From positions 1 to 13,968 of the IMG/VR virus record IMGVR_UViG_2537562191_000040: a DNA stretch of 13,968 nt. One strand, 5' to 3'. The notes beneath the pieces were generated by a model. That model was not told the DNA's origin, did no database searches, and worked only from the letters and a program-made list of their open reading frames with translations. Positions 3,219 to 5,566 of this stretch are shown here, piece after piece. The stretch is from a virus (lineage: Duplodnaviria > Heunggongvirae > Uroviricota > Caudoviricetes). The translations under genes and the position numbers were made by a program. Position 1 is the stretch's first letter. Each line of letters begins with the position of its first letter.

Positions 3219-4175
3219 CCTATAGTATTTATAATAGTTATCCCGTTCATTTTCGTTTAAAGAGAACTCTTCAGCGGCTGCCTGATATGCTTCTTTATCA
3301 GGCAGTTTACTATCTAAATTTATCTTTTCTTTAATTGTTAGTGTTGGTATTGCTATTTCTTGCACGTCTTCCCAATTTGTTGAATAAAATTGCCAGTTAG
3401 AAAGGTCGCATGCCTTAGATAACTCTATATATTCTTGTTCTGAGGAGAAAAAACCTGATATTGTCAACATGGTATGACTGCCATCATTATATTGATTTAA
3501 GGATAATGGGTAATACTGAATCTTATCCTTACGTCCTGAAAGACCACGTTCTATTGCTGATCTAAAAGCGTTTGTAATAATTCGTATTAAAAGAGCTTTA
3601 ATCTTACGATCTGAAAGATCTGCATTTGATATCTGAAGATTAAAATCAAGATACTTTTTCCCAAGCAATGATTTTAATGAATTAATAAAAGCTTCTTTAA
3701 AAATATCTAAACTTTCTCCAACTCTACGTTGGTAATAAGAACTAGGATTTATGGGGAAGGTGACCTTCAAAATATCAAAAGAGCTTACTTTAGTACTTAG
3801 TAAGTGTATATCATCTAGATCCGTTTGTATTTTTTTCGGGGAGGCATAGTCTAACCATGTTATTGATGGTTTAGAAAAACTATAATCAAGAATAAAGTCA
3901 TGAGCTGATATTAGCTTACAATCAATACAATTATAAGGCAAATTATATTTTTGTCTGATGTGAGTAGACTCTTGTTCTTCGAGAGAAATCATATCAGAAA
4001 GAGCGATACGATTATGCATGATTCTAAAATCTTCAAGCATCGGACCACCAAAACCTATATATGTATATTCTTGAATATTTAGTCTTTTGCTTAAGAGGTT
4101 TAGGCTTTCGAGAAAAATCTCTCTATCAATAGACTTATTATGCCTTAAGTGATAGGGAATGTATTGTCCAGACAT
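3186..4175 (-). CDS. Hypothetical protein (329 aa), operon partner of the GHKL ATPase; function unknown, candidate effector/nuclease
   Basis: Long AT-rich ORF. Its ATG overlaps the stop of the upstream gene (TGATG) and is preceded by a GAGGTG Shine-Dalgarno sequence. Its 3' end overlaps the 3' end of the methyltransferase gene by 33 bp in convergent orientation. I recognise no catalytic motif. Confidence 0.7.
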   Translation of the reverse strand: MSGQYIPYHLRHNKSIDREIFLESLNLLSKRLNIQEYTYIGFGGPMLEDFRIMHNRIALSDMISLEEQESTHIRQKYNLPYNCIDCKLISAHDFILDYSFSKPSITWLDYASPKKIQTDLDDIHLLSTKVSSFDILKVTFPINPSSYYQRRVGESLDIFKEAFINSLKSLLGKKYLDFNLQISNADLSDRKIKALLIRIITNAFRSAIERGLSGRKDKIQYYPLSLNQYNDGSHTMLTISGFFSSEQEYIELSKACDLSNWQFYSTNWEDVQEIAIPTLTIKEKINLDSKLPDKEAYQAAAEEFSLNENERDNYYKYYRLYPNFQRIMV

Positions 4176-5566
4176 CACTTCACCTCTTCAATCACCGTAT
4201 CAAAGCATTGCATCCCCACATCAGAAGCGCTAGCATCTTCATGTCCAAAGAAATATTTAGATAAAATTTTAACATCTTCTTTCTCTCTGGTGAAGATTAT
4301 TCGTACAGTAGAGCTTTTTTTTACTGGGGTAGGCAGCTTAGGTGTATATCGCCACTCATTTTTGTTTCTATTAGGGTTGGACCAGTTATTTTTTTTATCT
4401 TCTGGAGTTGATTGTGGGGTAATTTCAAATAAAGATTGAGCTTCATGTGACTGAGCTGACTTAAGTAATTTTTTCCCTTCTTCAAGATGCTCACCTTTCC
4501 ACTGATTGGTGAATCGAATAAAATGCATCATCCCTTCAATCATTTTATTTCGTACATCATTGTACAATGTAGAACTAAGATCGACACCTCGTTTCGTTGT
4601 TGTTATTGGTAATTTTTCTGGGTTTTTACTGGTAAAGCGAACAACCCCAGAAATTGCTATAAATTGGGTATGAAACCTTGGTACATTAGCAAAGCCCCAA
4701 CCTGTGAGATGTGTCTTATCACAATATAGAACAACGCGGTCATTGCAAATGACAGTCCATCCAGCATCATCAGAACTCCTTTTTTCTAAAACATCATCAT
4801 TGTCATCTTCTAAATTTTTATAGAAGCCAACAACTAAATCGATATCAACATCGTCTATTTTAGCTTTATATATGTATGGTTCTATTTTAGAATGATCAGT
4901 TATGATGTTAATCGGATTATGTTCAACAACAACTCCATTTAATTCTATTTTAAATCCTTTTTGAATAATAAATGACAATGAGTGTTTTATCTGTAAAAAG
5001 AGATCAGTAAGATATGTGCTCTCATTAAATTTTTGTGCCACATTAGAATGGAGTTTTTTTATCTCTATAGTTGTGCCTGTTGGATTTTTGTTATCATAGT
5101 CACTCTCGTGCATCGGTATTTTCCAACCATCACCATCGATCCAATCAGGTGTTATATCTACAGTGAATGCGCCATCGGGATTATTCGATTGTATTGAGCA
5201 ATCTCTACCCATTTTAAAAATGGCTCTTTTCATACCAATACCATAGACGCCAACGGTGCCTTCATTTTCTTCTTCTTTTTGATGGGGTCGTCCCATTTTA
5301 AAAGCATATTCTCGGAAGCTTTTAGGGATACCTCCGCAATTGTCTTCTATAATAAAGACATCTTTATTAATCGTAAGTTTCGCATAAAATCCTTCATATG
5401 GTTTTGAAGTTTTTTTTGTGTCTTTTATTGTACGTAAAGCCCCATCGACGCAGTTATCAAGCAGATCAAGTATGGCATCGTTTAAGTCGATATCTCGAGT
5501 TAGCATACTTACAAAAAATCTTTTACTAGGACTAAAGTCTGCTGTTGGAGTCGTGTTCTCAGTCAT
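4175..5566 (-). CDS. GHKL-superfamily (MORC/MutL/Hsp90-like) ATPase (463 aa)
   Basis: Bergerat-fold motifs in canonical order: N-box LDLLDNCVDGA, G1 box IEDNCGGIP (MutL-like DNGxG), G2 box GVYGIGMK, and a downstream GTTIEI element. There is no transmembrane or HisKA region, so it is not a sensor kinase. Confidence 0.8.
   Translation of the reverse strand: MTENTTPTADFSPSKRFFVSMLTRDIDLNDAILDLLDNCVDGALRTIKDTKKTSKPYEGFYAKLTINKDVFIIEDNCGGIPKSFREYAFKMGRPHQKEEENEGTVGVYGIGMKRAIFKMGRDCSIQSNNPDGAFTVDITPDWIDGDGWKIPMHESDYDNKNPTGTTIEIKKLHSNVAQKFNESTYLTDLFLQIKHSLSFIIQKGFKIELNGVVVEHNPINIITDHSKIEPYIYKAKIDDVDIDLVVGFYKNLEDDNDDVLEKRSSDDAGWTVICNDRVVLYCDKTHLTGWGFANVPRFHTQFIAISGVVRFTSKNPEKLPITTTKRGVDLSSTLYNDVRNKMIEGMMHFIRFTNQWKGEHLEEGKKLLKSAQSHEAQSLFEITPQSTPEDKKNNWSNPNRNKNEWRYTPKLPTPVKKSSTVRIIFTREKEDVKILSKYFFGHEDASASDVGMQCFDTVIEEVK

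Follow-up and report, generated by a model that had tools for sequence, protein, structure and literature searches.

Iyer, Abhiman & Aravind 2008 (PMC2292703), in the passages compared in the current analysis, define the MORC family of ATPases by the signature GhXhhpXXRhl in an S5-fold domain, which follows the GHKL domain and supplies a conserved basic residue. Prokaryotic members of the family are predicted there to be encoded in operons of the restriction-modification (R-M) type, about 70% of which hold a superfamily II (SFII) helicase and a nuclease, while a minority have methylases and no helicase. Among the literature searched, the GHKL relative with experimental support for a role in defence is VcSduA/paraMORC3, a Shedu type I-D protein of Vibrio cholerae, in which the catalytic motif I Glu of the GHKL domain is required for anti-phage defence (PMC12137116). 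In the current analysis we describe a GHKL ATPase gene encoded in a stretch of 13,968 nucleotides (nt) from a virus of the Caudoviricetes (IMG/VR record IMGVR_UViG_2537562191_000040), the whole of which is referred to as the window. The gene belongs to a conserved three-gene cassette together with a C5 DNA cytosine methylase and a protein of the Pfam family PF20553. We favour, at roughly even chances, the reading of this trio as an R-M-like defence cassette carried as a prophage moron, in which 5-methylcytosine (5mC) would mark self DNA and the ATPase-PF20553 pair would act on unmarked DNA, the ATPase serving as an ATP-gated clamp or switch.

The ATPase and the GHKL families

On the minus strand, the open reading frame (ORF) 5566..4175 encodes a protein that RefSeq lists in identical form as WP_000138556.1, with the label 'ATP-binding protein'. 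The original prediction, made from the sequence of the window, had pointed to ordered N-box, G1 and G2 strings in this protein, and these are borne out by translation, profile, alignment and model. Motif I (LDLLDNCVDGA, residues 33-43, nt 5438-5470), motif II (EDNCGGI, residues 74-80, nt 5327-5347) and motif III (GVYGIGMK, residues 106-113, nt 5228-5251) are accompanied by a fourth GHKL motif (IV) at G164-T165. The residues D34-x3-N38, D75-N-C-G-G79, G106-x-x-G-x-G111 and G164-T165 occur in this order and are invariant across an alignment of 30 homologues with 45-85% identity, as is the N-terminal strap SPxKxFFVxMLTRDI. Residues are numbered here from M1; the alignment and the AlphaFold2 (AF2) model are without Met1, hence the numbers are one lower there. 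In motif I, D34 occupies the position of the general base and N38 that of the Mg ligand. The general base is Asp in 30/30 aligned sequences, as against Glu in MutL, GyrB, Hsp90 and MORC.

The Pfam family HATPase_c_3 (PF13589) has been assigned to residues 28-132 with an E-value of 2.9e-9 (37.5 bits against a cut-off of 25), and all 30 aligned homologues match it, the best at 1.3e-13. In the AF2 model (predicted local distance difference test score, pLDDT, 82.8; predicted template modelling score, pTM, 0.75) about 400 columns match two-domain modules in a Foldseek search of the PDB (E ~1e-13 to 1e-11, 11-15% identity), among them Hsp90/TRAP1, SMCHD1 (6mw7) and topoisomerase IV ParE. The GHKL motifs are not a matter of chance, since the PF13589 match lies above its cut-off, all 30 homologues share it, the motif residues are invariant and the modelled fold matches known members. 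The family is large: the homologue search gave at least 5430 clusters, whose proteins vary little in length (~460-480 amino acids, aa) and span Enterobacteria, cyanobacteria, Nitrospirales, Gemmatimonadetes and others.

Structure prediction followed by the Foldseek search, the check proposed for an S5-like transducer, places a predicted transducer-like second domain after the ATPase domain. This segment, residues ~202-356, is the best conserved part of the protein. It contains the stretch G269-WTVICND-R277-VV (residues G269..V279, nt 4730-4762), which fits all positions of GhXhhpXXRhl and of which 8/11 positions are invariant in the alignment (G, W, T, C, N, D, R and the last V); we estimate at ~0.7% the probability that a protein as long as this one would contain such a stretch by chance. 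An invariant loop, TTTK325RG (K325 at nt 4592-4594), presumably resembles the QTK loop of GyrB with its gamma-phosphate-sensing lysine, and K325 may likewise contact the gamma-phosphate. At the profile level none of the 30 members matches an S5-type Pfam family, and a profile of residues 197-357 has no match in the PDB at E<=10; a profile of the whole ATPase finds MORC3 and MORC4 as its sole PDB matches, weakly (E 0.02-0.17) and in the N-terminal part only. The ATPase can be described, by pattern and predicted fold, as a GHKL ATPase with a transducer domain of the MORC type, the second domain being unmatched at profile level. The earlier assignment as MORC-like thus gains support from the motifs, the modelled second domain, the weak MORC3/4 match and the GhXhhpXXRhl stretch.

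The ~300 residues that follow the motifs had also been described as lysine- and asparagine-rich. A mild enrichment is present in the C-terminal 340 residues (K 9.3%, N 6.7%), which fits the 34% GC content of the gene, but this part is not filler, as it includes the best conserved segment. The region after the second domain ends in a module conserved as LPxP...RIxF...VGxxCF; no Pfam family was matched there in the 30 members and no conserved acidic/His cluster was found by inspection.

The top Foldseek matches to Hsp90/TRAP1 (E ~1e-13) and a weak match to the kinase-type HATPase_c family (E 0.004) would be consistent with a different GHKL protein, namely a histidine or protein kinase or an Hsp90-like chaperone, and we consider this very improbable. 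The HATPase_c match reaches 17.9 bits against a cut-off of 26.4; HisKA is not matched, and no response regulator was found in the inspected gene neighbourhoods. The likeness to Hsp90 and ParE is limited to the common module of ATPase and middle domain, only 11-14% of residues are shared with Hsp90, and the scores for SMCHD1 and ParE are nearly the same. The TOPRIM and HSP90 family profiles of Pfam have no match in the ATPase or in its 30 aligned homologues, and the features of MutL (the DNA_mis_repair S5 domain and the C-terminal dimerisation/endonuclease domain MutL_C) are without a Pfam or NCBIfam match in the ATPase. The kinase, topoisomerase and MutL signatures are accordingly absent, as had been noted at the outset. 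The gene context is one of DNA methylation and not of signalling or proteostasis, and the histidine-kinase and Hsp90 identities have been rejected.

A three-gene cassette and its location in mobile elements

The ATPase had been regarded as a stand-alone protein without context. This view is refuted by its coupling to a PF20553 gene, by its linkage to a C5 methylase and by the conservation of the resulting trio. In the window the stop codon of the ATPase gene overlaps the ATG of the PF20553 gene by 1 nt (TGATG), and the two genes are, as judged from this overlap, translationally coupled. The methylase gene lies on the other side of the PF20553 gene and is convergent with it, the 3' ends overlapping by 33 nt (3186-3218). 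No terminator-like site was seen in these 33 nt, and the two units may affect each other by transcriptional interference or through antisense control.

Relatives of the ATPase have been searched in a 185,579-species collection, with one genome per species; at least 585 stretches encode a relative, and the 80 loci that were kept come, by their record titles, from more than 10 phyla and one methanogenic archaeon. A PF20553 gene lies directly downstream of the ATPase gene in 74 of the 80 loci, a C5 methylase is adjacent in ~70 and the full trio is present in ~66; at one locus the PF20553 gene is split. Viral loci (72 IMG/VR contigs and one GenBank phage) give a similar picture, with an adjacent C5 methylase in 72/73 and the full trio in 69/73, persisting at 30% ATPase identity. 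The usual layout is DCM>ATPase>PF20553, with the methylase upstream and co-directional, and the remainder are convergent like the window. Both are arrangements classically found in R-M systems.

The large genes found beside the trio elsewhere comprise HsdR, SNF2-PLD, DUF3427/NOV_C, an HD protein, a second HATPase_c_3+Dcm pair and housekeeping genes, and no extra gene, helicase or nuclease is conserved beside the trio in the 80 genome loci. Some loci are duplicated in part. Two ATPase-PF20553 pairs face each other across a Vsr-like gene at locus L050 (~6800-13000), two ATPase paralogues stand in tandem at L005 and L077 (~6000-9400), and at L026 (10500-13921) a second Dcm and a 690-aa HATPase_c_3 protein directly follow the trio.

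The three genes have not evolved in the same manner. Over 59 complete loci the pairwise distances of ATPase and PF20553 are closely correlated (Spearman 0.87), as against 0.32 for ATPase and Dcm and 0.26 for PF20553 and Dcm, which indicates that the ATPase is inherited together with PF20553 and that the methylase is an exchangeable module. At least two large methylase types occur (45 and 10 loci), and the ATPase and PF20553 distances show no difference within as against between these types. Across loci PF20553 has a median pairwise identity of 32%, compared with 48% in the ATPase and 49% in Dcm.

The partner protein is covered over its whole length by the Pfam family PF20553, 'Methyltransf_35, putative O-methyltransferase' (E 2e-89); at the sequence level Pfam gave only this family and the PDB only noise. 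In the predicted structure (pLDDT 89.4) a single class-I methyltransferase domain carries an insert and a C-terminal extension, both of them helical; the insert (144-215) and the C-terminal part are the most variable segments of the protein. Invariant elements of this domain are a G-rich loop (FGGP) and the residues E66 and D109, which stand at the ends of beta-2 and beta-4, respectively, and because of these features binding of S-adenosylmethionine (SAM) by PF20553 is plausible. The 'O-' of the Pfam name finds no support in these data.

The methylase matches PF00145 (E 2.6e-61) and the TIGR00675 dcm family, and is near-identical over residues 1-367 to PDB 3G7U (E 1.3e-254), which we take to be the methylase of prophage CP-933R of EDL933. 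A Vsr-like neighbour with the FWHGH motif is encoded at 26 of the 80 genome loci and 10 of the 73 viral loci, and an HhH-GPD-like neighbour lies beside a second Dcm type at 7 genome loci; both were recognised by eye and not by a profile scan. Such neighbours imply that the methylase probably does place 5mC in resident DNA.

The same neighbours bear on the proposal, in our view quite unlikely, that the cassette is an accessory of 5mC-damage repair, in which the ATPase, as a MutL analogue, would boost the action of Vsr or a T:G glycosylase where 5mC placed by the linked methylase has been deaminated. E. coli MutL is a known stimulator of Vsr, which adds to the proposal. The analogy has also been drawn by Iyer et al. 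2008 (PMC2292703) in the passages compared. Most of the loci, however, including the window, have no Vsr in the cassette, and Vsr accompanies C5 methylases generally. The proposal also leaves PF20553 without a role and the location of the cassette at phage hotspots unexplained.

The cassette is mobile. A lambdoid (Rac-like) prophage of E. coli O111:H8 matches the window at 100% identity. Among 5426 complete E. coli genomes, 173 carry the window's version of the cassette, always as a single chromosomal copy with at least 99% identity, and these carriers include O157:H7 and O111:H8. A second version of the trio, with an ATPase 43% identical to that of the window (E 6e-130), occurs in 46 more, so that ~4% of the complete E. 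coli genomes have either version. In the carrier E. coli O157:H7 F6294 (NZ_CP038372.1; locus L156, 4866-6760) the methylase and about two-thirds of PF20553 have been lost while the ATPase is intact; this deletion, a single event in 1/173 carriers, is compatible with toxicity of the pair in the absence of the methylase, and with a methylase that can be spared only once PF20553 is inactivated too.

In E. coli elppa5 (locus L155, 5001-8516), the one locus inspected for this placement, nothing but the 43%-identical trio is annotated as cargo between the P2-like portal gene gpQ and the replication gene gpA, and the gpQ-gpA placement recurs in IMG/VR contigs and in Enterobacter. The second version has also been observed at loci L065 and L098-L140, many IMG/VR contigs being among its carriers. 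The gpA-gpQ interval has been defined by Rousset et al. 2022 (PMC9122126), in the parts of the paper and its tables considered here, as an antiviral hotspot from which many systems were validated. Table S5 of the same work lists a P2-hotspot arrangement 'DNA_methylase + HATPase_c_3 + hypothetical', the accessions of which could not be tied to the cassette, and this arrangement was not found among the curated and tested systems in those parts. A more distant trio (32% identical) is situated at the accessory end of PfAC20, a filamentous Pf phage of Pseudomonas (PP058144; locus L082, 280-3711), in the order ATPase > PF20553-like > C5-methylase; its authors describe the methylase as 'incomplete RM'. 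A second, shorter cytosine methylase is encoded in PfAC20 at 5438-6082.

The features of the window are collected in Table 1. The low-GC island that holds all three genes is flanked by early-region genes on one side and by ninB/ninG/Q-like genes on the other (RefSeq, PHROGs), and the ATPase operon is transcribed opposite to the phage genes. The two promoter-like sites are to be read with the outcome of the promoter and terminator scan as a whole, which was not above chance (19 found, 16.8 expected). The flanks of the island were also inspected for an additional effector and for a small ORF that could encode a controller (C-protein), and only short unconserved ORFs were found there.

Table 1. 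Positions of the cassette genes, their domains and associated features in the window
Feature	Position	Strand	Description	Basis or identifier
MORC-like GHKL ATPase gene	4175..5566	minus	463 aa, ATG start	WP_000138556.1, PF13589
GHKL (Bergerat-fold) ATP-binding domain	4964..5566	minus	residues 1 to ~201	Pfam, alignment, AF2 model, Foldseek
Transducer/S5-like second domain (predicted)	4499..4963	minus	residues ~202-356	AF2 model, Foldseek, conservation
C-terminal region	4178..4498	minus	residues ~357-463; variable linker 357-411, then conserved module	alignment, segment conservation
PF20553 (Methyltransf_35) class-I methyltransferase-fold partner	3186..4175	minus	329 aa	WP_000016656.1
C5 DNA cytosine methyltransferase	2067..3218	plus	383 aa	WP_001100703.1; PF00145, TIGR00675, PDB 3G7U
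Low-GC island with all three genes	1640..5900		32-38% GC, flanks ~50%	composition profile
Promoter-like TTGACT-16-TAAAAT (candidate only)	5619..5646	minus	~50 nt upstream of ATPase ATG	10/12 matches
Promoter-like TTAAAA-18-TATAAT, extended -10 TG (candidate only)	2005..2034	plus	33 nt upstream of methylase ATG	

Between the promoter-like site of the ATPase and the ninB-like gene the window has a Cys/Asn/Gln-rich ORF of 48 codons (5706-5852, minus strand) with a TTG start, or 39 codons from an internal ATG, which is unannotated in RefSeq. Two copies of IS1203, of the IS3 family, bracket the window (1-770 and 13037-13968 in the RefSeq annotation of the identical locus); a gene for a KilAC-domain antirepressor (12495-12995) is interrupted by the right-hand copy, and a DUF4014 gene beside the left copy is frameshifted. 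Genes for tRNA-Ile and tRNA-Arg (7646-7721, 7822-7898) are situated a short way downstream of the Q-like antiterminator; beyond them lie a TerB-family gene, the gene for a SASA-family esterase of 617 aa (9070-10923) and the lysis cassette. In the record of a related phage the esterase bears the name yjhS, 9-O-acetyl-N-acetylneuraminic acid deacetylase. The order from the tRNA genes to lysis is that of the late region of Stx phages, the stx genes being absent.

Putative function of the cassette

In the R-M-like reading, the C5 methylase would mark resident DNA with 5mC, and the ATPase and PF20553 would form an obligate pair acting on DNA without this mark. ATP binding may bring about dimerisation of the ATPase through its conserved N-terminal strap, and the dimer would serve on DNA as a slow clamp or switch gated by ATP, with nucleic-acid binding and/or a SAM-dependent activity supplied by PF20553. 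We find reasonable, and favour, the suggestion of the original prediction that the ATPase may act as a DNA clamp or as a sensor for its downstream partner. As no nuclease is encoded, exclusion would have to be non-degradative (BREX-like, or by MORC-like entrapment) or proceed via host nucleases. The free exchange of the methylase would be easiest to explain if site recognition resided in the methylase, as in Type I/III systems, or if methylation status were sensed by the pair in a generic way.

A number of observations weigh against this reading. A nuclease or other obvious effector domain is absent from all three proteins by Pfam and structure, so that the executor of 'restriction' is not visible. 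The general base of the ATPase being Asp and not Glu, its turnover may be slow or absent. GyrB E42 mutants form the basis for interpreting an Asp at this position and, by this analogy, it suggests a slow rather than a dead ATPase. The Dcm types have been exchanged without a matching change in the pair, unlike classical R-M systems, in which R and M have a common specificity; this calls for an extra assumption, such as the methylase as site reader. Seven cyanobacterial loci encode the ATPase-PF20553 pair among housekeeping neighbours with no adjacent methylase, and six related cyanobacterial loci carry the ATPase without PF20553. No experimental study of the ATPase-PF20553 family was found in the literature searched. 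Finally, the nearest structural neighbours of PF20553 methylate RNA and not DNA.

The six loci without PF20553 (L030, L041, L067, L069, L080, L081) come from cyanobacteria of the Leptolyngbya/Phormidesmis type. The ATPase lies there in a conserved neighbourhood of housekeeping genes, which are CinA-, AroQ-, MiaE-, GNAT- and UvrD-like by eye, and in two of these loci the methylase is absent as well. The ATPase may be a domesticated or decaying copy in these species.

RNA-methylating neighbours would also be in keeping with abortive infection, in which PF20553 is an RNA (tRNA or rRNA) methyltransferase toxin that the ATPase restrains, or triggers on unmethylated or foreign DNA. The structural likeness of PF20553 to these neighbours is, however, generic for the class-I fold (template modelling score, TM, 0.3-0.44; 6-14% identity), an RNA substrate is without direct support and the linkage to the methylase would be explained only indirectly, and we regard abortive infection as an improbable role for the cassette.

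The presence of two methyltransferase-fold proteins and no nuclease, together with the invariant FGGP loop, E66 and D109 of PF20553, can alternatively be accommodated by a module of modification only. PF20553 would then add a second SAM-dependent DNA modification, or the pair would help Dcm to place 5mC with the ATPase as a loader or processivity clamp, and the cassette would shield prophage and host DNA against other restriction systems or act epigenetically, and would not attack invaders. Lambdoid nin regions do commonly carry orphan methylases. For ordinary 5mC protection, however, an ATPase and a fast-evolving partner are superfluous, and the pair persists while the Dcm types are exchanged. 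The methylase-first or convergent order is typical of systems with a dangerous second component, and in the one P2-like prophage inspected the trio is the sole annotated cargo at the gpQ-gpA site, which is defence-rich according to the parts of Rousset et al. 2022 considered (PMC9122126). We consider such a module rather unlikely.

A bolder version of the R-M-like reading would be an immunity free of nucleases, in which a bacterial MORC, guided by the presence or absence of 5mC, would silence invading DNA that is unmethylated by entrapping it topologically or compacting it, PF20553 being a new SAM-dependent reader or effector. We hold this to be on the unlikely side. Eukaryotic MORC ATPases silence foreign or repetitive DNA in step with DNA methylation, and if nuclease-free entrapment holds, the cassette would be a prokaryotic counterpart, and possibly an ancestor, of MORC methylation-linked silencing in eukaryotes. 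A descent of eukaryotic MORCs from bacterial R-M-associated ATPases was proposed from comparative genomics in 2008.

The ATPase family and PF20553 are both present already in the sequence databases, and the system that they form with the methylase is very widespread and functionally uncharacterised. The cassette is compact, occurs in phage-defence hotspots that have been validated experimentally and is missed by current defence-system finders; it could reveal a non-degradative way of excluding phages or plasmids. Since a crystal structure of the methylase exists and the host is E. coli, it offers a directly testable model of MORC-5mC coupling. Were it to be an ordinary R-M accessory, many cytosine methylases of prophages described as 'orphan' or 'incomplete RM', such as that of PfAC20, would be re-annotated into a three-gene system.

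Comparison with known systems

PADLOC v2 recognises no family for the ATPase or for PF20553, and the methylase alone matches MTase_II/DruM/DrmMII. Neither PADLOC v2 nor NCBIfam, whose models cover MZA, Shedu, BREX, DISARM, Druantia and other systems, assigns the ATPase or PF20553 to a known defence system. Among the systems with a similar combination of domains, the MZA defence locus has an ATPase, MzaB, that is an HATPase_c_3 protein beside a C5 methylase, as is the ATPase of the cassette; the MzaB model scores 12.4 bits on the latter against an NCBIfam cut-off of 850. The 'Kinase-methylase' unknown system of Vibrio P2-like hotspots, in the portion of Table S6 of Rousset 2022 considered, likewise combines HATPase_c_3 with a C5 methylase, but its partners are GIY-YIG and TadZ_N-like proteins. 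It was tried as a candidate for the same system and rejected (BLASTP E 0.11).

With BREX the cassette has in common a methylase, an ATPase and the absence of a clear nuclease, and it differs in having no homologues of PglZ, BrxL or BrxC. Type II R-M systems with C5 methylases resemble it in the presumed self-marking methylase, in the methylase-first or convergent order, in the Vsr gene alongside and in their association with mobile elements. Unlike these systems, it has no detected restriction endonuclease family and its methylase is exchanged without co-variation of the partners.

Eukaryotic MORC2/3/4 and SMCHD1 are ATP-dependent dimerising DNA clamps that are tied to DNA-methylation-associated silencing. 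MORC3/4 are the only PDB sequence matches of the ATPase and SMCHD1 is among its top fold matches; the cassette ATPase lacks the CW, coiled-coil and hinge domains of the eukaryotic proteins, the identity is 13-14% and the likeness in the second domain is structural or at the level of the pattern only.

The closest resemblance is to the prokaryotic MORC and paraMORC systems (PMC2292703, in the passages compared), with which the cassette shares a GHKL domain followed by a predicted S5/transducer-like domain (unlinked to MORC S5 domains at profile level), the GhXhhpXXRhl pattern, the linkage to a cytosine methylase and Vsr and a sporadic, laterally mobile distribution. It is distinguished from most of these operons by having no conserved adjacent helicase or nuclease, and from all those in the passages compared by the PF20553 partner, which is absent there, by the Asp general base and by the tight three-gene form. 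VcSduA (PMC12137116) is a single protein with a C-terminal DUF4263 nuclease of the PD-(D/E)xK type and no methylase, whereas the cassette is a trio without a nuclease; like the protein described here, VcSduA has a GHKL ATPase domain, to which is joined a predicted dimeric clamp-like middle domain.

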